A DNA stretch of 64,000 nucleotides, taken from positions 114,424 to 178,423 of the forward strand of contig CAVSVU010000018.1 in assembly GCA_963731515.1 (NCBI GenBank). Reading direction: 5' to 3'. Under the pieces are notes generated by a model that was given only the letters and a program-made list of their open reading frames with translations, did not search any database and was not told where the DNA came from. A program made the position numbers and the translations under genes. Source of the DNA: an uncultured Actinomycetes bacterium (GTDB lineage Bacteria > Actinomycetota > Thermoleophilia > Gaiellales > JAICJC01). This document shows, in pieces, positions 6,435 to 58,353 of this stretch; the stretch's first letter is position 1, and each line of letters begins with the position of its first letter.

Positions 6435-7195
6435 GCGAAGGGCTCGGACAGGATGTCGGAGATGCCCCGCTTGGGCTCGACGGCCTTCACGAGGAAGTAG
6501 GAGAACCAGTAGAGCACCAGCATCGGCAGGTACTCGGCGGTCATGGTGACGGGGTCGGTGCCCGGCAGCAGGGCGGCGATGACGGCCAGGACGACGACCG
6601 CCTCGCGCCAGCGCCGCTTCATCATCGACGAGCGCAGGATGCCGACCCGGCCCAGCATCATCATCACGACCGGCAGCTCGAACACGATCCCCATCGCCAG
6701 CTCGGTGTACGCCACGAAGTGGATGTAGTCGCTGGCCCGCGGCAGGTAGGTGATGACGTCGCTGTTGTAGTTCACGAGGAATCGCAGGGCGGCCGGCACG
6801 ACGATGAACCAGCCGAACACGACGCCGATCAGGAACAGGCCCGGGATCATCAGGAGCATCGGCTTGATCGTGCGCTGCGACTCCTCGGAGAACGCCGGGA
6901 TCACGTAGGCGTAGAACTGGTAGCTCAGGATCGGCAGGGCGATCAGGAGGCCGCCGTAGACCGAGATCGTGATCGCGTTGAAGAAGGCCTCGCCCGGCGC
7001 GAACGCCACCAGCTGGCGATGGTGCGCCGGGAGCGCGCTCGTCAGCAGGTGGTAGATGCGGTGGTTCTCGTAGTAGCAGGCGGCGACGGCCACCACGAGC
7101 ACCGAGATCGAGACGATCAGACGTGTGCGCAGCTCATCCAGATGCTCGACGAGGGTCAGCTCGTCGTCCGGCCTTGCGCGCCGAATCCGCCCCAT
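6431..7195 (-). CDS. tatC: Twin-arginine translocase subunit TatC
   Basis: 'LVEHLDELRTRL', 'FELPV', 'PGTDPVTM', six TM helices. Confidence 0.95.
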   Translation of the reverse strand: MGRIRRARPDDELTLVEHLDELRTRLIVSISVLVVAVAACYYENHRIYHLLTSALPAHHRQLVAFAPGEAFFNAITISVYGGLLIALPILSYQFYAYVIPAFSEESQRTIKPMLLMIPGLFLIGVVFGWFIVVPAALRFLVNYNSDVITYLPRASDYIHFVAYTELAMGIVFELPVVMMMLGRVGILRSSMMKRRWREAVVVLAVIAALLPGTDPVTMTAEYLPMLVLYWFSYFLVKAVEPKRGISDILSEPFA

Positions 7196-45170: not shown

Positions 45171-45788
45171 GTGAGCGCCCACGCGGCCACGATCGACGGG
45201 CACGGGAACGGCGGCGAGGCCGCCCCGGTCTCGGCGTACCACGACAGCCTGCTGCGATCGCCGCTGTTCCTGGGCATGATCATGTTCCTGGGGTCGGAGA
45301 TCATGCTGTTCGGGTCGTTCTTCACGGTCTTCTTCTACCTGCGCTTCACGCACAGCCCGTGGCCGCCGACCGGCATCGACGTGCCCAAGACGCCGACCGG
45401 GATCAACACGACGATCCTGATCTCGTCGTCGTTCACGATGCACTGGGCGCTCGTGTCGGTCAAGCGCAACCGCCGCTTCGGACTCGTCTGCGGCCTGGCG
45501 CTGACGCTCCTCATGGGGCTCACGTTCCTGGCCCTGCAGGTGCACGAGTACCTGCACCTCGGCTTCACGCCGTCGACCGACGCCTTCACGTCGGGGTTCT
45601 TCTCGCTCACGGGCCTGCACGGCTTCCACGTGTTCGTGGGCGCCACCCTGCTCACGATCGCGCTCACCCGCTCGATCCGCGGCCACTACTCCGCCGGCGA
45701 ACATATCGGCCTCGAGGTCACCGGCCTCTACTGGCACTTCGTCGACGTCGTCTGGATCGTGCTCTACACCGTCGTCTACCTCCTCTAG
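45171..45788 (+). CDS. ctaE: Cytochrome c oxidase subunit III
   Basis: 'FLGSEIMLFGSFF', 'NTTILISSS', 'TGLHGFHV', 'YWHFVDVVW'. Confidence 0.93.
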   Translation: MSAHAATIDGHGNGGEAAPVSAYHDSLLRSPLFLGMIMFLGSEIMLFGSFFTVFFYLRFTHSPWPPTGIDVPKTPTGINTTILISSSFTMHWALVSVKRNRRFGLVCGLALTLLMGLTFLALQVHEYLHLGFTPSTDAFTSGFFSLTGLHGFHVFVGATLLTIALTRSIRGHYSAGEHIGLEVTGLYWHFVDVVWIVLYTVVYLL

Positions 45789-47020
45789 TGCGACGTCCCC
45801 TTCAGGACTCGGGCGTGCGCCCCGGGCCGTGGCTCCGGCTCACGGCTGTGGGCGCGTCCGTGGCCACGGCCCTGGTCGTGGCCAGCGGCGCCCTGCATTT
45901 CGGCGGCGCCCACCGCGCGCTCGCCCTGGTCGCGCTCGCGCCGATGCTGGCGATGGCCCTGGCGGCCTGGTTCGCCCATCCGCACCTGCGCCTGCCGTGG
46001 ATCGGCGCGCTCGCCCTCCTCCTCGCCGAGATCGCCCTGGGCGGCGTGGTCGCGCTGGCGTCCCCCATCCCGGCCCTACACTGGCTCCACGTCGGCGTGG
46101 CCGCGCTGGCGCTGGCAGCTGCGGTGGCGGGCACGGCCGCGACGCTCCGGGGGGAGCCCGTCCCGGCGGCCCCGTGGCGGGACTACCTGACGCTGACCAA
46201 GCCGCGGGTGATGTCGCTGCTGCTCTGGACGGGGGCCTGCGGGATGTTCGTCGGCGAGCAGGGCGTGCCGCCGGCCGGCAGGTTCGCCGCCGCGATGATC
46301 GGGCTCGCCCTCGCCTGCGGCGGCGCCAGCGCCCTCAACCACCTGCTCGACCGCGACATCGACCAGGAGATGACGCGGACGGCCGCACGCCCGGTCGCGT
46401 CGGGCCGCGTGGCCGCGCCGCGGGCGCTCGAGTTCGGGCTCGCCCTCTCGGCCGCGTCGTTCGTGCTCCTGTCGACCCTCGTGAACCCGCTGACGGCAGC
46501 GGTGGCCCTGGCGGGGAACCTGTTCTACGTGCTCGTCTACACCCGCTGGCTGAAGCGCTCGACCGTGCAGAACATCGTCATCGGCGGAGCCGCCGGCGCC
46601 GTGCCGCCGCTCGTCGGGTGGGCGGCCGCGACCGGGCGCCTCTCGGTGGGCGCGCTCGTGCTCTTCGTGATCGTGTTCGTGTGGACGCCGCCCCACTTCT
46701 GGGCGCTGGCCATGCTGATCAAGCGCGACTACGCGGCGGCCGGCGTGCCGATGCTGCCCGTCGTGCGCGGCGACCAGGCGGCGGCCCGCCAGATCCTGGC
46801 CTACTCGCTGGGGCTGGTTGCCGTCACCGCGCTCCCGGCCGCCGCCGGCATCGTCGGGCCGCTCTACCTCGCCGTCGCAGCCGTCGCCGGTGCCTGGTTC
46901 GTGTGGCTGGCCTGGCGGCTCGAGCGCGACCCGGTGCCGCGGCGGGCCGGGGCGCTCTTCCACTACTCGATGGTGTACCTGGCCGTGCTGTTCGTCGCCA
47001 TGGCCGCCGCGGCAGCCTGA
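45788..47020 (+). CDS. ctaB: Heme o synthase (protoheme IX farnesyltransferase) with N-terminal 4-TM CtaA-like extension
   Basis: 'LTKPRVMSLL', 'DRDIDQEMTRTAARP', 'NIVIGGAAGA', 'WTPPHFWAL'. Start may instead be GTG 45815. Confidence 0.9.
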   Translation: MRRPLQDSGVRPGPWLRLTAVGASVATALVVASGALHFGGAHRALALVALAPMLAMALAAWFAHPHLRLPWIGALALLLAEIALGGVVALASPIPALHWLHVGVAALALAAAVAGTAATLRGEPVPAAPWRDYLTLTKPRVMSLLLWTGACGMFVGEQGVPPAGRFAAAMIGLALACGGASALNHLLDRDIDQEMTRTAARPVASGRVAAPRALEFGLALSAASFVLLSTLVNPLTAAVALAGNLFYVLVYTRWLKRSTVQNIVIGGAAGAVPPLVGWAAATGRLSVGALVLFVIVFVWTPPHFWALAMLIKRDYAAAGVPMLPVVRGDQAAARQILAYSLGLVAVTALPAAAGIVGPLYLAVAAVAGAWFVWLAWRLERDPVPRRAGALFHYSMVYLAVLFVAMAAAAA

Positions 47021-47027
47021 CCGGCGC

Positions 47028-47249
47028 CTACTCCGCCAGGTCGCGGTACTCCCTGACGGCGTCGCGGATCCACTGCGCGCCGAAGATGATCGCCACCATG
47101 CCGCCGATCGACACGAGCGCGAGCCGCCAGATGCGCGCGTCGGGCACGAGCCCCGCCAGCACGAGCGCGATCCCGATCGAGGTCGCGAACGGGAGCGCCG
47201 ACGGCGCCGGCAGGTGGAAGCCGCCGCTGGTGTTGTCCTGATCAGCCAT
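47028..47249 (-). CDS. Small 2-TM protein, cytochrome c oxidase subunit IV (CtaF)-like
   Basis: 'FHLPAPSALP' followed by two TM helices, last gene of the second oxidase operon. Confidence 0.65.
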   Translation of the reverse strand: MADQDNTSGGFHLPAPSALPFATSIGIALVLAGLVPDARIWRLALVSIGGMVAIIFGAQWIRDAVREYRDLAE

Positions 47250-47358
47250 ATCGCACCAGCACTCCGACGAGCAGGGTCGCGGCGAACATCAGCAGCGAGA
47301 AGATGCCCAGCTTGAGACCGAGGACGAGGTTGCGCCGTGCGGTGGGCTTGTCGAGCAT
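47242..47358 (-). CDS. 38-aa single-TM protein, possible accessory oxidase subunit
   Basis: MLDKPTARRNLVLGLKLGIFSLLMFAATLLVGVLVRYG. ATG 5 nt after the ctaD-2 stop, own stop overlaps the next gene. Absent from the ORF track. Confidence 0.65.
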   Translation of the reverse strand: MLDKPTARRNLVLGLKLGIFSLLMFAATLLVGVLVRYG

Positions 47359-47363
47359 CGGCG

Positions 47364-49001
47364 TCAGTCTCCCGCGGCCGCGGCGGCCGCCTCACGGCGC
47401 AGATCGTACAGCGGCCGCTCGCTGCGGATCGGCGGCAGGTCGTCGAAGTTGTGCGGCGGCGGCGGCGAGCTCGTGTACCACTCGAGGCTGTTCGCGCCCC
47501 AGGGATCGGCGGGCGCGATCCGGCCCACCCGCAGCGAGTGGAGGCAGTTCCAGAGCACCATCAGGATGCCGGTGGCGAGCACGAACGCGCCGATCGTCGA
47601 GATCAGGTTGGCCGTGTCCCAGGCGTGGTTCGTGTACGTGCTGACGCGGCGGGGCATGCCCGAGAGGCCGAGGTCGTGCATGGGGAAGAACGTCATGTTG
47701 AACCCGACGAAGATGATCCAGAAGGCCCGGATCGCGAGCGCCCGGTCGAGCATCCGCCCGCTCATCTTCGGATACCAGAAGTGGACGCCGCCGAGCACGG
47801 CGAACACGGGCACCGTGCCGAGCACGTAGTGGAAGTGGGCGACCACGAAGTAGCTGTCGGTCACGTACAGGTCGATCGGGAAGGCCGCCAGGAAGATGCC
47901 CGAGAGCCCGCCGATCATGAACAGCCCGATGAACGAGACCGCGTACAGCATCGGCGGCTCGAACCGGATCCGGCCCATCCACATCGTGCCGATCCAGTTG
48001 AAGATCTTGACGCCGGTGGGGACGGCGATCGCCATCGACGCGATCATGAACCAGATCTGGAGCGGGGTCGAGAAGCCGACCGCGAACATGTGGTGGCCCC
48101 ACACCAGGAATCCCAGGAACGCGATCGCGACGATCGAGTAGACGAGCGCCTTGTAGCCGAACAGCGGCTTGCGCGAGAACACCGGGATGATCTCGGAGAT
48201 CATCCCGAACCCGGGCAGCGCCATCACGTACACGACCGGGTGCGAGTAGAACCAGAACAGGTGCTGGTAGAGGATCGGCCCGTGGGTGGCGGGCTGGTAG
48301 AAGCTCGTGCCGTAGTTGCGGTCGAGCAGCAGCATCGTCAGCGCCCCCGCCAGCACCGGGCCGGCGATCACGATCATCACGGCGTAGATGTCGATCGCCC
48401 ACGTGAAGAGCGGCATGCGCGTGAGCCGCATTCCCGGCGCCCGCATGTTGTGGATCGTGCAGATGAAGTTGATCGCGCCGATCAGCGACGAGATGCCGAG
48501 GATGTGCAGGCCGACGATCCACAGGTCGAGCCCGTGCCCGGGCGAGATGACCGAGAGGGGCGGGTAGGCCGTCCAGCCCGCGTCGGCGGCGCCTCCGCCC
48601 CAGACGAAGCTCGAGTACATCACGAGGCCGCCGAACAGGAGCAGCCAGTAGGAGGCGGCGTTCAGGCGCGGGAAGGCCATGTCGCGGGCACCGATCTGGA
48701 GCGGCACCAGGTAGTTCCCGAATGCGGCCATGACCGGCACGACGAACAGGAAGATCATCGTCGTCCCGTGCATCGTGAACAGGCGGTCGTAGGACTCCGC
48801 CGACACCACCTGGTTGTTCGCGTGCTCGAGCTGGAGCCGGATCGCGAGCGCCATCAGCCCGCCCACCGCGAAGAAGAAGAAGGTGGTGTAGAGGTACATG
48901 ATCCCGATCCGCTTGTGGTCGACCGTGGTCACCCACGACCACAGGCCGGAGGCGGGCCGGGCGGCGCCGGCGTGCGGAGCGGGTGTGGCTTCGGTCACCA
49001 T
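47364..49001 (-). CDS. ctaD: Second cytochrome c oxidase subunit I (A2-type YSHP)
   Basis: 'TVDHKRIG', 'HGTTMIF', 'FWFYSHPVVY', 'VWGHHM', 'VAHFHY', 'MPRR'. Confidence 0.95.
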   Translation of the reverse strand: MVTEATPAPHAGAARPASGLWSWVTTVDHKRIGIMYLYTTFFFFAVGGLMALAIRLQLEHANNQVVSAESYDRLFTMHGTTMIFLFVVPVMAAFGNYLVPLQIGARDMAFPRLNAASYWLLLFGGLVMYSSFVWGGGAADAGWTAYPPLSVISPGHGLDLWIVGLHILGISSLIGAINFICTIHNMRAPGMRLTRMPLFTWAIDIYAVMIVIAGPVLAGALTMLLLDRNYGTSFYQPATHGPILYQHLFWFYSHPVVYVMALPGFGMISEIIPVFSRKPLFGYKALVYSIVAIAFLGFLVWGHHMFAVGFSTPLQIWFMIASMAIAVPTGVKIFNWIGTMWMGRIRFEPPMLYAVSFIGLFMIGGLSGIFLAAFPIDLYVTDSYFVVAHFHYVLGTVPVFAVLGGVHFWYPKMSGRMLDRALAIRAFWIIFVGFNMTFFPMHDLGLSGMPRRVSTYTNHAWDTANLISTIGAFVLATGILMVLWNCLHSLRVGRIAPADPWGANSLEWYTSSPPPPHNFDDLPPIRSERPLYDLRREAAAAAAGD

Positions 49002-49005
49002 CGGG

Positions 49006-49755
49006 TCATGTCCTCTGGAGCTTCGCGGTGTAGGCGTTCCAGTCCGCCCGCGAGACCACCTTCACCGTGATGAGCATCGTGGCGTGGCCGATGCCGCAGA
49101 ACTCCGCGCACTGGCCCTTGAAGGTGCCGATCTGGTCCGCCTGGAACCAGGTCGTGTCGGTCTGGCCGGGAATCGCGTCGATCTTCGGGCCGAGCGCCGG
49201 CACCCACCAGTCGTGGTTGACGTCGATGGAGCGCACCTCGAGCTTCACCGGCGTGTCCACCGGCACCACCAGGGTGCTCGGGGTGCTCGGCGCCCTGCCG
49301 GAGGCTCCCGAGTTCGCGCCGTAGAGGTACGAGAACGAGAACTGCTGCGCCTTCACGTTGACGATGATCGAGTTCGACGGAGCGTCCTTCACGTTGCCGA
49401 TGTGGTCGAGCGTGTAGGCGGAGAGCGCCACCAGCACGAGCACGGGCGCGAGCGTCCAGCCCAGCTCCAGCCGGGTGGAGCCGTGCACCTGGGGCGGCTC
49501 GATATCCGGCTCGCCGGGGCGGACGCGGAACCGCAGCGCCGAGTAGAGCAACCAGCCGCCGACGAGCACGAAGATCGTCACCGTCACGCCGAGGACGGCC
49601 CGGTAGATGCTGTCCATCGCGTGCGACGCCGGCCCCGCGGGGTGCTGGAAGGTGGCCGTGTCCGCCGCCGCGGGCGCCGCCCCGAGCAAAAGCAACGTGA
49701 CCGCCGTGAACGCGGCCAGGACGAGCGGGCGCTGTCGGAGCGTGGGCACCTTCAC
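49006..49755 (-). CDS. ctaC: Second cytochrome c oxidase subunit II (no cytochrome c fusion)
   Basis: 'LELGWT', 'DVNHDWW', CuA 'CAEFCGIGHATM'. Confidence 0.92.
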   Translation of the reverse strand: MKVPTLRQRPLVLAAFTAVTLLLLGAAPAAADTATFQHPAGPASHAMDSIYRAVLGVTVTIFVLVGGWLLYSALRFRVRPGEPDIEPPQVHGSTRLELGWTLAPVLVLVALSAYTLDHIGNVKDAPSNSIIVNVKAQQFSFSYLYGANSGASGRAPSTPSTLVVPVDTPVKLEVRSIDVNHDWWVPALGPKIDAIPGQTDTTWFQADQIGTFKGQCAEFCGIGHATMLITVKVVSRADWNAYTAKLQRT

Positions 49756-49816
49756 GGGACGCGGCGCATTCTACAAGCGATTCCGGCCTGTCCCGCCGAC
49801 GACCGTCGAATCGTGT

Positions 49817-50800
49817 CTAGGTCGCTTTCGGCGGCTCCGGAGGGCGCGCCCCGGACGGGCGCGGGTCGGGCTTCGCGCGCGGTGGCGTCGCCCCCTCGCT
49901 GAACGCCGCGCCGAGGCCCGCCACGGCTCCCATCGCGTCGGCGGCCCCCGTCGGCAGCAGCAGCAGCTTGTTCGCGTCGCCGGCGGCGACGGCGGGGAGG
50001 GCCTCGAGGTATTTGTATCCGAGCATGTCGGCCGGGGCGATCCCCGATTCCCTGACCGTCTCGAAGATCTTCCCGAGCGCCTCGGCCTCGCCCTCGGCCC
50101 GCAGCGCCCGGGCCTCCTTCTCGCCCGTGGCGCGAAGGACGTTCGACTGCTGGTCTGCCTCGGCGTTCAGGATCGCGGCCGCACGCAGGCCCTCGGCGCG
50201 CAGGATCGCGGCCTGCTTCTCGCCCTCCGCCATCAGGATCGCGGCGCGCTTGGCCCGGTCGGCGCGCATCTGCTGCTCCATCGCCTCCTGGATCGTGCGC
50301 GGCGGGTCGATGCTCTTGAGCTCGACGCGCGTCACCCGCACGCCCCACTTCTCGGTCGCCTCGTCGAGCACGATGCGCAGCTGCGAGTTGATCTGGTCGC
50401 GGCTCGTCAGCGTCTCCTCGAGCGTCATCGACCCGACCACGTTTCGCAGCGTCGTCACGGCGAGCTGCTCCATGGCCTGCAGCATGTTCGCCACCTCGTA
50501 GGTGGCCTTCACCGCGTCGGTGACCTGGTAGTAGACGACCGTGTCGACCCCGATCGTGACGTTGTCCTGCGTGATCACGGGCTGGGGCGGGAAGGCCTGC
50601 ACCGTCTCCTTCATGTCCACGGTCACCCGGATGCGGTCGAGCATCGGCACGAGGACGTGCACGCCCGGGCCGAGCGTGCGCTGGTAGCGGCCCATCCGCT
50701 GGACGACGCCGACGGTGCTCTGCTGGATGACGCGCACCGCGCGTCCGACGATGACCAGCGCGAGGATGACTACCGCCAGGACTGCGATCAGCTCAACCAT
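49817..50800 (-). CDS. SPFH/band 7 (stomatin-like) protein
   Basis: 'PPQPVITQDNV', 'TTLRNVVG', 'KWGVRVTRVE', 'MEQQMRADR'. Confidence 0.92.
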   Translation of the reverse strand: MVELIAVLAVVILALVIVGRAVRVIQQSTVGVVQRMGRYQRTLGPGVHVLVPMLDRIRVTVDMKETVQAFPPQPVITQDNVTIGVDTVVYYQVTDAVKATYEVANMLQAMEQLAVTTLRNVVGSMTLEETLTSRDQINSQLRIVLDEATEKWGVRVTRVELKSIDPPRTIQEAMEQQMRADRAKRAAILMAEGEKQAAILRAEGLRAAAILNAEADQQSNVLRATGEKEARALRAEGEAEALGKIFETVRESGIAPADMLGYKYLEALPAVAAGDANKLLLLPTGAADAMGAVAGLGAAFSEGATPPRAKPDPRPSGARPPEPPKAT

Positions 50801-51272
50801 CGGGTTCTCCCTGCTCGAGCGCGGAGTCGCCGCGCGGCGACGGCGCGGGGATCACAAGCGCGGTGACCCCCTCGACCTTGACGACCTCGACCCGGCTTCC
50901 CAGCGGGATCGCCTCCTCGTCGTAGTAGCAGCGGGCGGTCCACGTCTCGCCGCCCACCTTGACCTGTCCGGGCTCGAGCCCGGCGATCGCGCGGGTGACG
51001 ACCCCGACCCGGCCCGGCATCGCGTCGACGCCCGTGCGGATGCCCGTCGCCTTGCCCGCTGCCCGCTTCAGCGCCGGGCGGGTGAGGAGGAGGCCGCCGC
51101 CGGAGAGGACCGCGAAGGCGAGCAGCTGGATCGGCAGGTCCAGGCCGGCAGCGGCGATCGCGGCGGTGATGATCGCGGCGAGGCCGAAGTAGATGGCGAC
51201 GAAGGCCGAGGTGGTGGCTTCGGCGACCAGCAGGACGACTCCGATCACCACCCAGACCACCCAGGCTTCCAT
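50793..51272 (-). CDS. NfeD-family membrane protein
   Basis: TM helices then 'GQVKVGGETWTAR...VEVVKVEG', adjacent to SPFH gene. Confidence 0.9.
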   Translation of the reverse strand: MEAWVVWVVIGVVLLVAEATTSAFVAIYFGLAAIITAAIAAAGLDLPIQLLAFAVLSGGGLLLTRPALKRAAGKATGIRTGVDAMPGRVGVVTRAIAGLEPGQVKVGGETWTARCYYDEEAIPLGSRVEVVKVEGVTALVIPAPSPRGDSALEQGEPDG

Positions 51273-51309
51273 ACCTGTCAACAGTAGTGCGCAATACTGC
51301 GCTCTGTCC

Positions 51310-52476
51310 ATGGAGCTCGAGCAGATCACGACGGGTGCGGCGCTCGGCCCGCTGCTCGACCAGGCGCGGGCGGAGGGCAGCTGCGCGGTCGACACGGAGT
51401 TTGTCTGGGAGCGCACCTACGCGCCCGCGCTGTGCCTGGTGCAGCTGGCAACGGCCGAGCGGCTCGCGGTCATCGACCCCCTGGCCGGCGCGCCGCTCGA
51501 TCCCGTCGCCGAGCTCATGGCCGATCCGGCCGTCGAGAAGGTGATGCACGCGCCGTCCGGCGACCTGGCCGCGTTCGTGCTCCACCACGACGTGCGGCCG
51601 CGCAACGTGTTCGACACCCAGGTGGCCGCCGGGTTCGCCGGATACGGCGGCTCGCCCTCGCTCGAGCGCCTGCTCGAGCAGGCCGTCGGCGTCCGCCTGC
51701 GCCACGACGAGGGATTCACGGACTGGTCGCGGCGTCCGCTCACGCCGGTGCAGGTCGAGTACGCGGCCGACGACGTCCGCCACCTGCTTGGCGCCGCCGA
51801 GGCGCTGCGGGCGCGGCTGGCCGACCAGGGCAGGCAGGCGTGGGTGGACGAGGAGATGCAGCAGCGCTACGGCGACGGCGCGACGCTCGTGCAGGACCCC
51901 GAGTTGGCCTTCCGCCGGGTGAGCGGGCGCGGGCGGCTGCGGGGCGAGCAGGTATCCGCCCTGGCGGCGGCCGCCGCGTGGCGCGAGCGCGAGGCCCGTC
52001 GCCGCGACCTGCCCGCGTCGTGGCTGATCAAGGACGCGACCCTGATCGAGATCGCCCGCCGGCGCCCGAGCACGCCCCGCGACGCCGAGTCGATCCGGGG
52101 GCTGCAGCTGCGCAAGGGCGCACAGCTCGACGGCCTCCTCGCCGCCGTGGCGGGTGCCGGCGCGCCTCCGGCCGGGGCGTCCGAGGGCGACCTGCCCGGC
52201 GAGGTGCGGCGGCGGGTGCGGGTGGTGCTGCCGCTCGCGAGCGCCGTGCTCCAGGCCCGCTGCGCCGAGGCCGGCGTCGCGTCCGAGCTGGTCGCCACCC
52301 GGGCCGAGCTCGAAGCCCTGATCGCCGGCCAGGCGATGGGCGCCGACGGCGGCCATCCGCTGCTCTCGGGCTGGCGCCGCGAGCTGGCCGGCGAGTCCCT
52401 GCTGCGCCTGCTCCGGGGCGAGATCGCCCTCCGCGTCCTGCCTCGCGCGCCCCACGTGGCCGAGCAGGTGCGGTGA
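51310..52476 (+). CDS. rnd: Ribonuclease D (DEDDy exonuclease + HRDC)
   Basis: 'VDTEFVWERTY', 'CLVQLA', 'FDTQVAA', 'TDWSRRPL', 'YAADDV', 'WREREARRRD'. Confidence 0.92.
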   Translation: MELEQITTGAALGPLLDQARAEGSCAVDTEFVWERTYAPALCLVQLATAERLAVIDPLAGAPLDPVAELMADPAVEKVMHAPSGDLAAFVLHHDVRPRNVFDTQVAAGFAGYGGSPSLERLLEQAVGVRLRHDEGFTDWSRRPLTPVQVEYAADDVRHLLGAAEALRARLADQGRQAWVDEEMQQRYGDGATLVQDPELAFRRVSGRGRLRGEQVSALAAAAAWREREARRRDLPASWLIKDATLIEIARRRPSTPRDAESIRGLQLRKGAQLDGLLAAVAGAGAPPAGASEGDLPGEVRRRVRVVLPLASAVLQARCAEAGVASELVATRAELEALIAGQAMGADGGHPLLSGWRRELAGESLLRLLRGEIALRVLPRAPHVAEQVR

Positions 52477-52540
52477 AGAGCGCGTAAACGTTTCCGCCCG
52501 CGGGCCGTGCCCGCGGGGGTCGTCGCTACCCTATCGGGCA

Positions 52541-53080
52541 GTGGTCGGCGCGTCGGTAGCGGGGCCGCTGGTCTCGGTACTGGCGGTCGTCTTGGTGGTG
52601 GCGGGAGCGGGCAAGCTGCGCGCACCGGCCGCCGCTGCCGACGCCCTGCGCTCGGCCGGACTGCCCGCCGGGGCCCTGCGGGCGCGCCTGGTCGGGGTGG
52701 CCGAGGTCGGGGCCGGCCTCGTCGTCCTCGCGTCGCCCAGCCGGCCCGCCCTCGCGGTCATGGCCGCGCTCTACGCCGTTCTGGGCGCCTTCGCGCTGCG
52801 CCTGCTGCTCGTCGCGGAGCCGGCCGCCTCGTGCGGGTGCTTCGGCGCCGACGCGCCCCCCTCGCCCCTCCATGCGGCGTTCGACGCCGGCGCGCTCGTC
52901 GTCGCCGCCGCGGCCGCGATCGACCCGCCGCCCGGGCTGCCCGAGCTGGCCGCGCGTGCCCCGGTCGCGGGCGTCGCCCTCGTGGCCGGCTGCTGTGCCG
53001 CCGCCTATGCCGTCACGCTCGTCCTCGGCCGCCTGCCACAGGCCGCGGCGGCCTACCGCCCGCGCCGGAGCGCCGCGTGA
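52541..53080 (+). CDS. MauE/DoxX-family membrane protein
   Basis: 'AGAGKL', 'AEVGAG', 'SCGCFG' motif, about five TM helices. Confidence 0.85.
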   Translation: MVGASVAGPLVSVLAVVLVVAGAGKLRAPAAAADALRSAGLPAGALRARLVGVAEVGAGLVVLASPSRPALAVMAALYAVLGAFALRLLLVAEPAASCGCFGADAPPSPLHAAFDAGALVVAAAAAIDPPPGLPELAARAPVAGVALVAGCCAAAYAVTLVLGRLPQAAAAYRPRRSAA

Positions 53081-53712
53081 CCGACCGGCTCGTCTCGGCC
53101 GCCTCGCGCCTGCTCGAGCGGCGCACGTCGCGGCGCGGCATCCTCGTGCGCGTCGCCATCGGCGGCTCGGCGCTGGCGGTGGCGCCGCTGCGCTACCTGC
53201 TCCGCCCGGGGAGCGCCGAGGCGGTCATCACCTGTCGCGACTGCCGCCCCGGCGCGCTCTGCTGCGACGGCTGGACCGAGTTCTGCTGCACCATCACCGG
53301 CGGGTCGAACACCTGCCCGCCGTACACCTTCATGGGCGGCTGGTGGAAGTGCACCAACTATCGCGGCACGAAGCTCTGTGGCTCCGAAGGCGTGCGCTAC
53401 TACATCGACTGCAACCGGCTGCCGGGGCAGTCCTGCCCGCACGGGTGCTCGTGCGCGGAGGGGCTGTGCCAGCACCGCTCGACCTGCTGCAACGTCTTCC
53501 GCTACGGGCAGTGCAACACCCAGATCGGCAAGGTGACCGAGGTCGTCTGCCGCATGATCACCTGCCAGAACCCGGGCCGCCTGTTCCCGGGCCAGTGCTC
53601 CCGGCACGTCCTCGTCGACGACCGCACCTGCGGCCACGAGGCGGCCTGCCTGGTGAAGGGCGCGGCCGCGCCGCCCTACACCGGCCTGCGCGCGGGCGGG
53701 GGTGCGCTGTGA
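53077..53712 (+). CDS. Tat-exported 22-cysteine protein, distantly MauA (amine dehydrogenase light chain)-like
   Basis: Tat motif 'TSRRGIL', AEA cleavage site, 'GGSNTCPPYT..GWWKC...RYYIDC' core. Confidence 0.8.
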   Translation: MTDRLVSAASRLLERRTSRRGILVRVAIGGSALAVAPLRYLLRPGSAEAVITCRDCRPGALCCDGWTEFCCTITGGSNTCPPYTFMGGWWKCTNYRGTKLCGSEGVRYYIDCNRLPGQSCPHGCSCAEGLCQHRSTCCNVFRYGQCNTQIGKVTEVVCRMITCQNPGRLFPGQCSRHVLVDDRTCGHEAACLVKGAAAPPYTGLRAGGGAL

Positions 53713-54380
53713 CGGCCGTCGTCACCGTCGAGACGCTGCTGCTCGTGCTGCTCGTGCTGCTGGTCGGGGGGCTCCTGCGCAGCCACGCAGAGATCCTGCG
53801 CCGCCTGGACGAGCTGCAGCCGGGCGGGACGGCGACGGCGGCCCCGGCGCGCACGTCGACGGCCGCGCACGACGTCTCCGGCGTGACGCTCGCGGGCGAC
53901 GCGATGCACGTCGGCGTGACCCGGCCCGGGACGGCAACGCTGCTCGCGTTCCTGACATCGGGCTGCAGCACCTGTGCCGGGTTCTGGGAGGCGTTCGCCG
54001 ATCCGCGCACCCGGCTGCCCGAGGGCGTCGGCCTCGTGGTCGTCACGAAGGATGCGAGCCACGAGAGCCCGGCGCGGCTGCGGGAGCTGGCGCCGTCCGG
54101 CGTGCGCGTCGTCATGTCGAGCAGCGCGTGGGTCGACTACGACGTCCCGGCGAGCCCGTACTTCGTGCACGTCGACGGCCGGGGCGAGCTGGCCGGCGAG
54201 GGCACGGCGCAGCGCTTCGACCAGGTGCTCTCCCTGCTCAACGACGCCGCCGACGACGCCGGCGAGGGCTCGGAGGAGCGCGCCGTCCGGGTCGAGCGCG
54301 AGCTGGCCGCCGCCGGCATCGGCCCCGATCATCCCAGCCTCCGTCCCGCATCGGTGCGGCATGGTGACGGCGCCGGCTGA
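53709..54380 (+). CDS. MauD-like membrane-anchored thioredoxin-fold protein
   Basis: N-terminal TM helix, 'FLTSGCSTC' CxxC, 'VPASPYF' cis-Pro loop. Confidence 0.82.
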   Translation: MTAVVTVETLLLVLLVLLVGGLLRSHAEILRRLDELQPGGTATAAPARTSTAAHDVSGVTLAGDAMHVGVTRPGTATLLAFLTSGCSTCAGFWEAFADPRTRLPEGVGLVVVTKDASHESPARLRELAPSGVRVVMSSSAWVDYDVPASPYFVHVDGRGELAGEGTAQRFDQVLSLLNDAADDAGEGSEERAVRVERELAAAGIGPDHPSLRPASVRHGDGAG

Positions 54381-55029
54381 GCTCGCCGTGGCCGTGCCGC
54401 TCGCGGTCGTCGCCGGGCTGCGCTCGCTGTGGTCGCCCTGAGGGGAGTCGATGCTCGGGAGCATCACTCCGCTCGGTGAGCGGAGCCGGGGAAGGCGATG
54501 GGGCGTCACGGTCACGGCCTTCGCGCTGGCCGCGGCGGCGGCCGGGGCGGGCGCCGGCGCGCTCCTCGGCGCGGCGGGCGGTCTCGCCGGCATCCCCGCC
54601 ACGATTCGGGTCGGCCTGCTCGGCGCGGCGGTGGCGGTCGCGATCGCGGTCGATCTCGTGCCCGGGGTGCGCCTGCCCGGCCCGCATCGGCAGGTGAACG
54701 AGGCCTGGCTGCACCGCTACCGCGGCTGGGTGTACGGGGCCGGGTTCGGGCTCCAGCTCGGCCTCGGCGTCACTACGATCGTCTCGACCGCCGCGGTGTA
54801 CGCGACCGGCGCCGCCGCGTTCCTGGCCGGATCGGCCGCGGCCGGCGCAGCCGTGGGCGCGGCCTTCGGGCTCGCCCGGGCGGCCACCCTGCTCGCCGCA
54901 GGCCGAGTCGACGAGCCGCGCGCGCTCGCGACCCTCGACCGGCGCCTGCACGCGTGGGAGCGTCCGGCCAGGGTCGTTGCGCTCCTCGCCGAGGCGGCGC
55001 TGATCGCGCTTGCGGTGGCGGTCGCATGA
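54361..55029 (+). CDS. MauF-like membrane protein with in-frame TGA at 54439-54441 (candidate selenoprotein)
   Basis: MVTAPAELAVAVPLAVVAGLRSLWSP-(TGA)-GESMLGSITPLGER... is in frame with ORF 54451..55029. 'HRQV...WVYGAGFGLQLGLG' motif. Confidence 0.75.
54444..54470 (+). promoter_or_regulatory. Candidate bacterial SECIS hairpin
   Basis: GGAGT-C-GATGCT-[CGGG]-AGCATC-ACTCC: 11-bp stem with one bulge, starting 2 nt after the TGA. Confidence 0.55.
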
Positions 55030-55469
55030 GGCTCGCGGCCCACGGCATCGCGCTCGACCTCCCGGCCGGCTGGGACGGGCGTATCTGGACGCGTTCGGGC
55101 GGCGGCCCCGTCGTGCACGCCGCCAACGTCGCCCTGCCCGCGACCGACGGCGACTTCGCGACCCGCGCCACCGAGGCGCTGCCCGCGGACGGCGTGGTGG
55201 TGGTGCTGGTCGACTACGGGCCCGGCGACGCCGGCACCCCGCTCTTCGCGGCCCCCGCCCCGGCCCGGATCGACCCGGCCGAGCTGTCTCCGTCGACGCT
55301 GCTCCACCGCCGCCCCGGCCAGCGCGGGCTGCAGCATTTCTTCACGACCGCCGGGAGGGCGATGTGCCTTTACGTCGTGGTCGGCTCGGCCGCACACGCG
55401 TCCGACCTCGCCGCCGGCGTCAGCCGGGTGCTCGAGACGCTCCAGGTTGAGATGGTGCCGACCGGCTGA
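55026..55469 (+). CDS. Hypothetical protein, last gene of the mau-like operon
   Basis: ATGA overlap with the preceding stop. MRLAAHGIALDLPAGWDGRI...FFTTAGRAMCLYVVVGS. Confidence 0.75.
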   Translation: MRLAAHGIALDLPAGWDGRIWTRSGGGPVVHAANVALPATDGDFATRATEALPADGVVVVLVDYGPGDAGTPLFAAPAPARIDPAELSPSTLLHRRPGQRGLQHFFTTAGRAMCLYVVVGSAAHASDLAAGVSRVLETLQVEMVPTG

Positions 55470-56612
55470 TCACTGGAAGGTGAACTGGTCGGCGGGGGAG
55501 GTCGCGGAGGTCCCCCGCGACGTCGTGACGACCACGTCGACCGTGCCCGTGCCGGCCGGGCTCGTCGCCGTGATCGTCGTCGGCGAGTGGACGACCACGT
55601 GCGTCGCGGCTGCCGAGCCGAACCGGACCTTCGCGCCGGCCACGAAGCCGCGCCCCGTGATGGTCACCGCCGTGCCGCCGGCCGACGCGCCCTGGGCCGG
55701 GGAGACACGGGTGACCGCCGTCGCCTTGACCGGCTGCCAGTCGGGGATCTCGTTCCCGCGCAGCCCGGTCAGGACGGTCGCCGCCCCGCCGCCGGCCGGC
55801 ATGACGTCGATGGTCTGGCCCGCCGAGGTGGCGCGCGCGAACAGCACCCGGTTGCCGTCCGGCGACCAGGCCGGCTGGAACTCGGCCGCCGAGTCGGTGG
55901 TCAGCCGGTGGAGCGCGCGTGACCCGACGGTGATCGTCCACACGTCGAACGAGCCCGCGCGGTTGCTGGCGAATGCGATCCGCGACCCGTCGGGCGACCA
56001 GGCCGGCTGCACGTTCCGGGCCGTGCCGCTCGTCAGGACGGTGATCGTCCCGCCCCCGGCGGGCACGACGCAGATCTGGTAGTGGCCGTTGCGGGGGGCG
56101 TCGAACGCGATGCGGGCGCCGTCCGGCGACCACACCGGGAGGCTGTCGACGCCGGAGCGGTGCGTCACGCGCACCAGATGCCCGGACCCGTTCGCGTTCG
56201 TGGTGTAGATCTCCCAGTCGCCGGTGCGGTTGCTGGCGAAGGCCAGCGTGCGGCCGTTCGGCGACCAGCTCGGGAAGGCGTCCTTGCCGGGGTTCGTCGT
56301 GATCCGGCGCAGGTCGCGCCCGGCGGTGTTCATCGTGTAGATGTCGTAGTTGCCGCGGCGGTCGCTCGTGAAGGCGATGCGGCGGCCGTCGGGCGAGAAC
56401 GACGCCGCGAAGTCGTCGGCGGCGCTCGTGGTCAGGCGCACGGCCGGGCTGCCCTTGGCCGGGCGCTTCACGTAGATGTCCCAGTTGTCCGCGCGGTCGC
56501 GGTCGAAGGCGATCATCCCGTTCCCGTGCAGCTGCGCGCCCGCCGCCGGGACGGCCGTGAGCAGGGAGGCGACGAGCCCTGCCGCCACACCCCGGATCGT
56601 CGCTCGCATCAT
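55470..56612 (-). CDS. Secreted TolB-like PD40 beta-propeller protein with C-terminal IPT/TIG domain
   Basis: Repeated 'WSPDG-x-RIAF-x-S-x-R' units and 'TRVSPAQGASAGGTAVTITGRGF'. Confidence 0.88.
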   Translation of the reverse strand: MMRATIRGVAAGLVASLLTAVPAAGAQLHGNGMIAFDRDRADNWDIYVKRPAKGSPAVRLTTSAADDFAASFSPDGRRIAFTSDRRGNYDIYTMNTAGRDLRRITTNPGKDAFPSWSPNGRTLAFASNRTGDWEIYTTNANGSGHLVRVTHRSGVDSLPVWSPDGARIAFDAPRNGHYQICVVPAGGGTITVLTSGTARNVQPAWSPDGSRIAFASNRAGSFDVWTITVGSRALHRLTTDSAAEFQPAWSPDGNRVLFARATSAGQTIDVMPAGGGAATVLTGLRGNEIPDWQPVKATAVTRVSPAQGASAGGTAVTITGRGFVAGAKVRFGSAAATHVVVHSPTTITATSPAGTGTVDVVVTTSRGTSATSPADQFTFQ

Positions 56613-56717
56613 CCCGTCCTTCACCTTGCCCGCCCGCGTCGCGCTTCCTGGTGAGCCAATCGTAAACATTTCCCGTCGCGCTAAGCATGACCTGCCTCCC
56701 TGCCGATCATCCGGAAC

Positions 56718-58353
56718 GTGCCCCGGAGCAGGCTTCTTCCGTCTCGGGTCTGGGCCCTGGTCAGCATCGCGGTCGTCGGCGTCTGCGTGGCCGGCCCGGC
56801 TCCCACGCAGGCCGATGTGCGGCCGGGCTCCGCGCTCGACTCCGCCGGCCTGGCCTCGCCGCCGCGGTCGCTGCTCTCGCTCGCGATGAGCCGCGGCCGC
56901 CGCCGGGCCGGACTACTCCGGAGCCCTGTGGGAGCCGGCCAGCCCGCTGAATTACACCGTCGCCGACCGGCCGCTGACGAACCCGATCACCCGGCTCGTC
57001 ATCCACGTCGCCGAGGGCAGCTGGGCCTCGACCTACACCTGGTTTCGCAACCCTCGCGCCGAGGCGTCCGCCCACTACGTCGTGTCCTCGACCGGCCGCG
57101 TTGCCCAGATGGTGCCCGACCGCGACATCGCCTGGCACGCGGGCAACTGGGCCTACAACGAGAGCTCGATCGGCATCGAGCACGCCGGGTTCACGAACGT
57201 CACCCGGTTCCCGGACGCCGAGTACCGCGGCTCGGCCAAGCTCGCCGCCTGGCTGGCCGACACCTACCTGATCACGCCCGACCGCAAGCACGTGATCGGG
57301 CACTACCAGGTGCCGGACCCGAACCATCCCGGGGAGTGGGGCGGCGTCGACCACCACACGGATCCCGGCCGCACCTGGAACTGGGCCCGCTACATGGCGT
57401 ACCTGCGCTCGGACGCGCAGGACACCGCTCAGCAGATCGTCGACAACGCCAGTCCTTCCGCCGTGCGCTACGACCCGTCCGTCTGGCACGTCGCGAGCAC
57501 GCAGTCCGGCCGCTACGGGGCGAACTACCTGGCCGCGGCGCCGCACGGGCCGTCGAGCCCGGTGCAGTACCGGGTGTCGGTGCCCGCGAGCGACCGCTAC
57601 GACCTGCTGATGCGCTGGCCGTGCGGGGCCGACTCCGCCAAGGCGGGCGTGGACGTCACGACCACCCGCGGCCTGCGCACCGCGACGGTCGACGAGGCCC
57701 GCGGCTGCGGCAAGTTCCAGTACGTCGGCAGCTACGACCTGGCGGCGGGCGCAGGCTGGCGGCTCCGGGTGAGCTCGGCGTCGAGCGCCCGCGGGACCAT
57801 CGTTGCCGACGCGTTCAAGCTCGTCGAGCAGACCGATCCCACGCCGCCGGCCGCGCCGTCGGTGACGACGAACCCCGCCGAGACCTCGATCGGCGTCACC
57901 TGGACGCGCGCGAGCGACAACATCGCCGTCGGCGGCTACCGCGTCGTCGTCGACTCGAAGCTCCGCTACCAGGGCACGAGCCGGACGCTGGCCGTCACCG
58001 GGCTCGCCTGCGACACCGTCCACACCGTGTCGGTGCGGGCGCTCGACATGGTGTCGAACCTCTCGCCGAAGGCGCCCGTCTGGGTGCGGACCGGGCCCTG
58101 CCCGCCGCCGCCGACGGGGCTCGTCGCGACGCCGGCCCGGAACTCGGTCGCCCTGCGGTGGACGGCTCCGGCCGCAGGGCTCACCTACCGCGTGCTCGTG
58201 AACGGCCGGCTCATCCGCACGGTATCGGGCACGACGTCGACGGTCGGCTCGCTCCACTGCGCCGTCACCCGCACGTTCTCGGTCGAGAGCGTCGATGCGA
58301 CACGCAGCATCTCCGCCCCTGTCGCGACCGACGCCACGACGCTCGGGTGTTGA
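56718..58353 (+). CDS. Secreted N-acetylmuramoyl-L-alanine amidase (Amidase_2) with accessory and FN3 domains (apparent +1 frameshift near 56892)
   Basis: After frame correction: 'LVIHVAEG', 'SAHYVV', 'AWHAGN', 'SIGIEH', 'GHYQVP', 'HTDPG', then two FN3-like domains. Confidence 0.85.

Follow-up and report, generated by a model that had tools for sequence, protein, structure and literature searches.

A mau-like operon with a predicted selenocysteine in its MauF homologue and a cysteine-rich, probably exported product

What would a bacterium do with the accessory genes that mature methylamine dehydrogenase (MADH) when the enzyme itself is missing? The question is raised by five genes, g1 to g5, in a stretch of 64,000 nucleotides from an uncultured actinobacterium of the Gaiellales (assembly GCA_963731515.1, contig CAVSVU010000018.1, positions 114,424 to 178,423 of the forward strand). 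The whole stretch is called the window here, and all coordinates refer to it. Three of the genes encode homologues of MauE, MauD and MauF, and a fourth encodes a probably exported protein with 22 cysteines. We propose, with a probability of roughly 0.6, that the operon is a thiol-redox assembly line dedicated to the folding of one exported surface protein, g2, a predicted descendant of the MADH light chain MauA that would likely carry 11 disulfides and no tryptophan tryptophylquinone (TTQ). The MauF homologue in turn is predicted to be a selenoprotein. The features on which the discussion leans are the following.

g1, 52541-53080, + strand: MauE-family membrane protein, predicted DsbB-like disulfide generator
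g2, 53077-53712, + strand: protein of 211 amino acids (aa) with 22 Cys and a Tat-like leader (Tat, twin-arginine translocation); probable remote relative of the TTQ light chains MauA/AauA
g3, 53709-54380, + strand: membrane-anchored thioredoxin-fold protein with a CSTC motif (C86/C89), MauD homologue
g4, 54361-55029, + strand: MauF homologue of 222 aa, predicted selenocysteine at residue 27
In-frame TGA in g4, 54439-54441, + strand: context WSP-U-GESM
Hairpin of the selenocysteine insertion sequence (SECIS) type, 54467-54485, + strand: 8-bp stem, GGU loop
g5, 55026-55469, + strand: soluble protein of 147 aa, predicted Mog1/PsbP-like fold

Gene order and mau homologies

The five genes overlap at every junction, with GTGA at 53077 (g1/g2) and 53709 (g2/g3), 20 nt at 54361-54380 (g3/g4) and ATGA at 55026 (g4/g5). 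An earlier sequence-only reading of this DNA had described five overlapping genes on one strand, and the genes and all four junctions were found where it placed them. Conservation was assessed in 80 GTDB loci, the best g2 matches out of 577 qualifying, and in 20 loci from more distant genomes; these relatives belong to Thermoleophilia (Gaiellales and Solirubrobacterales) and to other Actinomycetota. The compact five-gene order is identical in 69 of the 80 loci, rearranged in 3 and lacking genes in 8, in 7 of which the sequence ends within 1.4 kb of g2. With the same order in so many loci the arrangement is not due to chance, and the synteny that the sequence-only reading had proposed to check is thus present. 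The distant loci shuffle the order and keep the set: g1 was found in all 20, g3 and g5 in 19 each and g4 in 17 within the fetched stretch, and the g4 genes of genomes G458 and G367 were located on other contigs. Clustering of 1,854 filtered neighbouring open reading frames from the 100 loci gave no sixth gene family common to close and distant loci.

The source genome (G000 in our set, 91% complete) holds a single copy of each operon gene. Strong g2 matches were found in 29 of 351 evenly sampled Actinomycetota genomes, and 4 further genomes gave weak matches lying mostly in the leader region. All 29 g2 genomes also have g5, which was found in only one of the 322 others (G233). Sequences from 19 of the 29 went into the g5 profile, and the informative part of this pairing is the absence of g5 elsewhere. 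The 351-genome tally and the 336-genome tally used below include six unpublished genomes (G151, G195, G233, G262, G433 and G449), none of which carries g2; the lone g5 exception is among them.

Comparison with the mau genes on plasmid 1 of Paracoccus denitrificans PD1222 (NC_008688), the reference throughout, connects three of the five proteins to the Mau accessory set. The first, g1, matches PF07291 (MauE) at E 3.9e-14, and its family profile reaches P. denitrificans MauE at E 1.6e-15. Hydropathy gives it four hydrophobic segments, and its CGCFG motif (C98-G-C100) retains the CGC in all g1 sequences scanned. MauE can substitute for DsbB and needs its CXC for this, according to the accessible part of a recent preprint (bioRxiv 10.64898/2026.03.05.709764). 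One N-terminal transmembrane helix precedes the thioredoxin fold of g3, whose CxxC is kept in every sequence scanned except one and whose family profile matches P. denitrificans MauD at E 1.6e-15 with an hhalign probability of 97%. Against the MauD model TIGR02661 it scores 22 bits (E 7.5e-5), far under the cut-off of 189, so g3 is a MauD homologue and not an equivalog. For g4 the family profile matches P. denitrificans MauF at E 2.6e-23. Judged by their sequences, g1, g3 and g4 have the features of a CXC-bearing MauE, a MauD-like CxxC thioredoxin and a WSPC-type MauF, and the membrane protein with CGCFG, the CxxC thioredoxin and the MauF-like protein of the sequence-only reading are all borne out.

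The remaining mau genes were searched for genome-wide. PF06433 (MauB) has no match in the source genome or in any of 33 other carrier genomes, and the same search returns its positive control, NC_008688, at E 2e-212. PF03150 (CCP/MauG) has none in the source genome and one among the 33 others, on a contig other than the operon's. Searches of the source genome by tblastn with MauA, MauB, amicyanin, MauJ and MauG gave nothing at E < 0.1, and a second MauA-like gene was not found there. Across the 100 loci no conserved electron-acceptor gene occurs among the operon's neighbours. The absence of mauB, mauG and amicyanin that had been noted for the operon extends to the source genome at its present completeness, and the co-occurrence of mauB or mauG with the operon, on which the sequence-only reading would have foundered, is limited to the single PF03150 match.

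A predicted selenocysteine in the MauF homologue

With five hydrophobic segments and no cysteine, g4 is open across its whole length only if the TGA at 54439 is read through, and this codon aligns with the sole cysteine of P. denitrificans MauF (WSPC79G). Gene callers begin g4 at an internal ATG at 54451 (192 aa), and most of its database homologues, at 192-195 aa, likewise start downstream of the TGA. The site could be located in 90 of 101 family sequences, where the codon is TGA in 85, TGC in 3 and TGT in 2. The corresponding column is invariant, with U or C alone in 84 of 84 sequences, and any other Cys column is filled in at most 27 of 84. On a tree of 42 of the 86 rows plus an outgroup, the Cys/Sec label (Sec, selenocysteine) changes four times, twice as forced by well-supported branches, and the Cys forms lie in separate parts of the tree.

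The hairpin that follows the TGA has an 8-bp stem and a GGU loop (GGN in the family) 33 nt from the TGA, with a folding energy of -13.8 kcal/mol (z -3.5). It satisfies all four constraints that the legend of Figure 2 in PMC13188914 gives for bacterial SECIS elements: a loop of 3-9 nt with a G, a stem of 4-16 bp, a distance of 16-37 nt from the UGA and an energy of -7.5 kcal/mol or lower. Stems of at least 7 bp are found at 74 of the 85 TGA sites, compared with 3.6% of synonymous recodings and none of 5 Cys sites. Covariation in the hairpin amounts to 19 double-sided changes in 46 distinct sequences, a count that relatedness inflates and that exceeds 500 of 500 shuffles and all slid controls.

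The machinery for selenocysteine insertion is also at hand. The source genome encodes tRNA-Sec (selC), selA, selB and selD, the last detected by tblastn at 45% over 269 aa. In 10 of the 100 loci sel genes are located at most about 8 kb from the operon, presumably because g4 is a client of selenocysteine. At these loci (L033, L037, L042, L058, L060, L067, L076, L120, L124 and L128) selA, selB and/or selD is near the operon, with tRNA-Sec in six. A g4-family match was found in 71 of 336 Actinomycetota genomes, and a TGA falls within the match in 57 of them (the unpublished G151, G195 and G262 are counted here). An intact selA is present in 52 of these 57, compared with 4 of the 11 genomes whose match spans the site without a TGA.

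These recoding signals make it very likely that g4 is a selenoprotein with selenocysteine at the position of MauF's single cysteine. The sequence-only reading had suspected a selenium-dependent product. The dependence on selenium is upheld by the TGA at the MauF cysteine, the SECIS-type hairpin and the sel genes, and its location is revised, as the predicted selenocysteine sits in the MauF homologue and not in the product. Selenocysteine in g2 was considered and rejected; the internal-looking TGA stops there are ordinary C-terminal stops. Neither MauF nor a family with an SPUG motif appears among the 119 selenoprotein families in Table 1 of PMC13188914, none of 22 g4 members matches a selenoprotein model of NCBIfam 20.0, and neither a selenocysteine-containing MauF nor this operon is described in the open literature found, the deep-Sep supplements included.

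The probably exported protein and its candidate partner

Gene 2 had been read as encoding a MauA-like, cysteine-rich protein with a Tat signal. The leader is indeed Tat-like (TIGR01409, 17.4 bits against a cut-off of 16.7) and the 22 cysteines are there. In one family, f25 (L088-L092 and L095), most g2 homologues have a leader without a clear twin-arginine motif.

The resemblance to MauA took more to establish. Nothing in Pfam matches g2, PF02975, the light-chain family, included; PF02975 is over its cut-off in none of the 351 genomes of the phylum, all 29 g2 carriers among them. Direct sequence searches of the PDB gave nothing useful, and language-model features point to PF02975 (0.79) as a lead only. 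The AlphaFold model of g2 has a predicted local distance difference test (pLDDT) score of 89.9, and in a VIA comparison 8 of the 9 chains at Z of at least 2 are light chains of MADH or of aromatic amine dehydrogenase (AADH), with Z 2.0-2.3, a root-mean-square deviation (rmsd) of 3.0-3.9 and 62-81 aligned residues. The connection is made through light chains encoded on a Thermomicrobium roseum plasmid. The g2 profile scores 40.6 and 35.3 against these, compared with shuffled maxima of 21.4 and 20.4 (Cys-fixed shuffles included), and they in turn pass the PF02975 cut-off and align to canonical MauA at 98% probability. Because of this transitive link g2 is probably a remote homologue of the MauA/AauA light chain; "MauA-like" stands in that sense and fails as a PF02975 match. 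The Thermomicrobium region itself (NC_011961.1, 484628-498852; L132) has two or more divergent light-chain genes of the PF02975 family, each adjoining genes of roughly 400 aa, two of which have weak PQQ_2 propeller matches. One of the light chains (near 7001) is unannotated, and no mauD, mauE, mauF or mauG is annotated in the 14 kb.

Whether such a protein could make TTQ depends on residues that, in MADH, we take to be Trp57 (quinone-bearing), Asp76 (active-site) and Trp108 (the cross-linking partner). The Thermomicrobium-bridged alignment places W89/W90 of g2 (53341-53346) at Trp57, with both tryptophans as candidates, and D111 (53407) at Asp76. The ends of the structurally matched range (118 in the model with 128 in MADH) fit C158 as the equivalent of Cys121; Q145 (53509) would then occupy the position of Trp108 and R159 that of Thr122. 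Of 141 family members, 120 have Q at position 145 and 18 have N, and an alternative MAFFT register likewise puts no Trp there. The only tryptophans in g2 are W66, W89 and W90, so that in any register none follows W90 and TTQ cannot form. The accessible text of PMC7876137 describes TTQ as a Trp-Trp cross-link with a requirement for MauG and a conserved Asp. Since Trp108, MauB and MauG are all lacking, the g2 system is, on the evidence of sequence, not a TTQ amine dehydrogenase. The sequence-only reading had held that the maturation module is retained for a different disulfide-rich product and not for a classical amine dehydrogenase. Its non-TTQ cargo agrees with the missing Trp108 and with the failure to find mauB in any of 33 carriers. 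Instead of being an unrelated protein, the product probably descends, with much divergence, from MauA itself.

The cysteines of g2 appear to be structural. Its relatives number 836 at 90% clustering and 530 at 50%, and the domain of about 150 aa is single-copy with a mean column identity of 52-56%. Each domain has 12-30 cysteines, an even number in 128 of 141 homologues, and particular pairs are gained or lost jointly: C92-C185 (phi 0.88), C124-C138 (0.88), C120-C137 (0.75) and C71-C191 (0.64). The even parity and the paired gain and loss indicate disulfides, of which g2 likely holds 11. LGFP, CWB2, SLH, DUF4214, FG-GAP or ricin domains were found on 53 of 86 long homologues scanned, so the g2 domain is often wall-tethered; 2 of the 86 are fusions to MauE. 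Five MauE-g2 fusion proteins in databases (P0061, P0084, P0105, P0242 and P0334) could be genuine or could have arisen artificially from frameshifts at the GTGA overlap.

The last gene of the operon, g5, encodes a protein with no Pfam or NCBIfam match, no signal peptide and no transmembrane helix, in which the motifs QxFF and RxxC114LYVV are conserved. Its AlphaFold2 model (pLDDT 96) has its nearest folds in the Mog1/PsbP class, namely BT_1490, Tsi3, PsbP, LpqN and EagT6, with VIA Z no higher than 7.2 and an rmsd of about 4. The best Foldseek match is Tsi3 (E 4.7e-3), and the ESM neighbours are DUF3805 and DcrB. Members of the Mog1/PsbP class mostly bind other proteins. On the basis of fold class and co-occurrence, the simplest reading is that g5 may serve as a g2-specific chaperone. 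Assignments of g5 as MauJ, amicyanin or MauB were rejected (hhalign probability at most 0.4%).

Neither a sigma-70 promoter nor an intrinsic terminator was found in the region 50700-56800. Upstream, at 45359-52476, lie ribonuclease D, an NfeD/SPFH pair and genes of the cytochrome c oxidase type (the last named from their translations only), which accompany the operon just in its closest relatives, about 10 of 100 loci. Downstream, at 55470-56669 on the - strand, lies a gene for a secreted protein that combines a TolB-like PD40 propeller and an IPT/TIG domain, its stop abutting that of g5. In 20 of 80 loci a propeller of this sort comes right after g5, in 5 of these on the same strand, and it is a possible optional partner of the operon. 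Four loci (L111-L113 and L115) have a second thioredoxin-like gene downstream of g5.

A second actinobacterial MauD/MauF cassette, often with MauE and without g5, was seen at L142, L144, L145, L146, L149, L151 and L152. Its cargo is a different Tat protein with 10 Cys (YHxCGH...GGWxRCC...DCC...GYC...VFC), which keeps the Trp...Asp-Cys pattern and in profile comparisons weakly resembles both g2 and the light chains of Thermomicrobium (scores of 21-24, shuffled maxima 17-18). The MauF of this cassette has TGA or TGC; the g4 site was not located by pattern in L143, L144 and L146, where the TGA is tentative.

Mechanism, alternatives and known systems

The proposed assembly line would begin with export of g2 by Tat, as its leader suggests, and g2 would likely end on display at the cell wall, given the domain fusions of its homologues in other classes. 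Disulfides would be introduced by the CGC motif of the MauE homologue g1, an activity that experiments have shown for other MauEs, and membrane-anchored g3 would relay or shuffle them. With its predicted selenocysteine, g4 may pass electrons across the membrane in the manner of CcdA/DsbD, a direction that would keep g3 able to isomerise wrong pairings, and g5 would bind the g2 precursor. The mature g2 would be a non-enzymatic binding module using an invariant patch of Trp, Tyr, Arg, Asp and His, and this final step is the weakest. The sequence-only reading had also spoken of an export system, an idea that finds no support, as the operon has no export gene and the leader suggests passage through the general Tat system.

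A number of observations weigh against this reading. The analysis covers gene content, linkage, homologies, recoding signals, cysteine pairing and surface fusions, and from these we infer the steps themselves. Descent from MauA is one point of strain. A single MauA compared with g2 scores at the level of shuffles (15.2 against 13 +/- 3), the canonical MauA profile gives 19.5 against a shuffled maximum of 19.0, and the intermediate Thermomicrobium profile is small, with 2-8 similar sequences. The four top Foldseek hits of the g2 model are AADH small subunits at E 0.69 or worse, and in a wide VIA search the light-chain match ties with a pertussis-toxin B subunit. Export by Tat is not supported by the f25 leaders. 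A reductive role of MauF rests on a DsbD_2 match of g4 that is below the cut-off (E 0.044), and g4 does not have CcdA's second cysteine. As for selenium, 5 of the 57 TGA genomes are without an intact selA (G367, G311, G354, G365 and G249); the TGA is confirmed at the site in G367 (L141) and G311 (L142), and G354 has selA in frameshifted pieces. These are probably assembly gaps. Further, selA is widespread in the phylum anyway, over the cut-off in 232 of the 351 genomes, in keeping with common selenocysteine use in its mostly uncultured classes, and its presence in 29 of 33 carriers is a modest enrichment that we do not use as evidence. Finally, W90 and R159 are conserved in 141 of 141 members of the g2 family and D111 and Y143 in 139 of 141, and with N78, also conserved, they look like a functional site, which fits awkwardly with a purely structural role.

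That conservation also argues for a different, unlikely view, in which g2 is a redox enzyme of the cell surface whose cofactor is new and derived from Trp. Hydroxylation of W89/W90 with help from D111, like the autocatalytic step with which TTQ and CTQ formation begins, would be followed by a MauG-independent cross-link to Tyr143 or a Cys. In this view g5 would be a maturation factor or partner subunit, and the selenocysteine-containing MauF and MauD would feed electrons to g2. The GGW...DCC kept by the weakly similar cargo of the second cassette is in its favor, as is the accessible text of PMC7876137, where a conserved Asp is believed to take part in an autocatalytic first hydroxylation. The same text, as far as it is accessible, has all known tryptophylquinones in need of a modifying enzyme, and next to the operon there is no conserved oxidase, haem protein, flavoprotein, radical S-adenosylmethionine enzyme or electron acceptor. 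Asp32 is conserved in only 93 of 141 sequences, and the Thr122 position would, in the register given above, be an invariant Arg that could simply form a salt bridge with D111. We regard it as unlikely, though worth keeping in mind, that g2 founds a widespread family of wall-displayed, MauA-descended enzymes whose new Trp cofactor is made without MauG or MauB and matured by a relay of selenocysteine-containing MauF, MauD and MauE together with a factor of Mog1/PsbP fold.

The cysteine content, at 12-30 per domain, is so high that g2 could also be pictured as a surface protein binding a metal, selenium or sulfur, with MauE, MauD and MauF keeping its thiol state or moving sulfur or selenium across the membrane. 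Many homologues of g4 go under the JGI name "sulfite exporter TauE/SafE", and the sel genes within about 8 kb could be read in the same way. However, even parity and pairwise gain and loss fit disulfides better than metal sites with three or four ligands, MauE is a demonstrated disulfide generator according to the accessible part of its preprint (bioRxiv 10.64898/2026.03.05.709764), and the proximity of the sel genes is accounted for by g4 as a selenocysteine client. We find this account quite unlikely.

The strict pairing of g2 with g5 and the presence of the type VI secretion immunity proteins Tsi3 and TplEi among the best fold matches of g5 would suit an antagonistic or signalling surface product resembling a ribosomally synthesized and posttranslationally modified peptide (RiPP), with g5 as its immunity protein. 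Clusters with mauE or mauD beside cysteine-rich precursors have been proposed as RiPP clusters in Streptomyces (accessible text of PMC7794033). Polymorphic toxin/immunity pairs are unlike the highly conserved (52-56%), single-copy g2 family; its 150-aa domain is folded and wall-anchored, and the Mog1/PsbP fold (Z at most 7.2) is common to many unrelated functions, all of which renders this proposal very unlikely. Lastly, the operon could belong to a TTQ amine dehydrogenase of the classical type, its heavy chain and MauG having diverged too far or being missing from the assembly, with the TolB-like propeller at 55470-56669 in place of MauB. This view could appeal to the remote MauA homology, the propeller abutting g5 in 20 of 80 loci (same strand in 5) and a genome only 91% complete, and is highly improbable: g2 has no second Trp to take the place of the absent Trp108, which largely refutes it, none of 33 genomes gave a mauB match in a search that did detect its positive control, the MauG family is present in 1 of 33, and the propeller is non-adjacent in 60 of 80 loci and convergent here. 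As an obligatory MauB substitute the propeller was rejected for its adjacency in 20 of 80 loci only.

If the operon is a folding line for g2, as we favor, it suggests that MauD, MauE and MauF form a redox-folding module that is portable. It also suggests that the scaffold of the TTQ light chain, having lost the partner residue of the cofactor, has found a second use as a surface domain of uncultured bacteria that are abundant in soil. Any modification that W90 and D111 might still bear would make a protein-derived cofactor of a new kind. With g4 the operon also contributes a predicted family of membrane selenoproteins, which the inventory of May 2026 (119 families) does not list and gene callers systematically shorten. 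We found no paper that explains the part of MauF in MADH assembly. Selenium at MauF's lone cysteine points to its active residue and makes the role of MauF testable. What we consider new is the evidence for descent of the cargo from MauA, rather than a new fold, together with the missing Trp108, the cysteine pairing, the predicted fold of g5 and the strict g2-g5 pairing.

Several known systems share parts of this arrangement. Among selenoproteins, TsoB (a rhodanese/DsbD fusion, NF045694) is the nearest in the table of PMC13188914 and resembles g4 in having a UGA aligned to Cys, an in-frame SECIS and a likely membrane redox role. The CcdA/DsbD carriers are transmembrane reductases with two conserved membrane cysteines. 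Like them, g4 is a membrane protein in which an SP(C/U) motif just past the first helix holds the redox residue, and it has a weak DsbD_2 match; unlike them, it has one conserved Cys/Sec. The decRiPPter clusters of Streptomyces (PMC7794033) place mauE, with or without mauD, beside a cysteine-rich precursor and contain no other mau genes. In their accessible text and supplements, however, the precursors are under 65 aa and unrelated (GWWKC and FRYGQC are absent from the supplements), and there is no MauF, selenocysteine or g5. The MauE-centred pathway (bioRxiv 10.64898/2026.03.05.709764) likewise has a CGCFG MauE adjoining a thioredoxin-family partner in genomes without a recognisable MauA. The accessible part of that preprint treats MauE as a generalist and does not cover MauF or selenium, whereas MauE is tied here in one operon to one substrate.

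The closest comparison is with the mauFBEDACJG cluster of P. denitrificans and the aau clusters. The present operon differs from the mau cluster in having no MauB, MauG, amicyanin, MauJ or Trp108, in a g2 that has 22 Cys where mature MauA has 12, is extended at its C-terminus and is frequently fused to wall-binding domains, in a MauF that uses predicted selenocysteine and in an extra Mog1/PsbP-like gene. In both, homologues of MauE, MauD and MauF stand beside a small, cysteine-rich, Tat-exported protein with a similar extended leader (hhalign E 4.6e-4), and g2 keeps the pattern of the light chain's N-terminal half with the equivalents of Trp57 and Asp76. The operon appears to work like the MauD/E/F maturation arm of the mau cluster.

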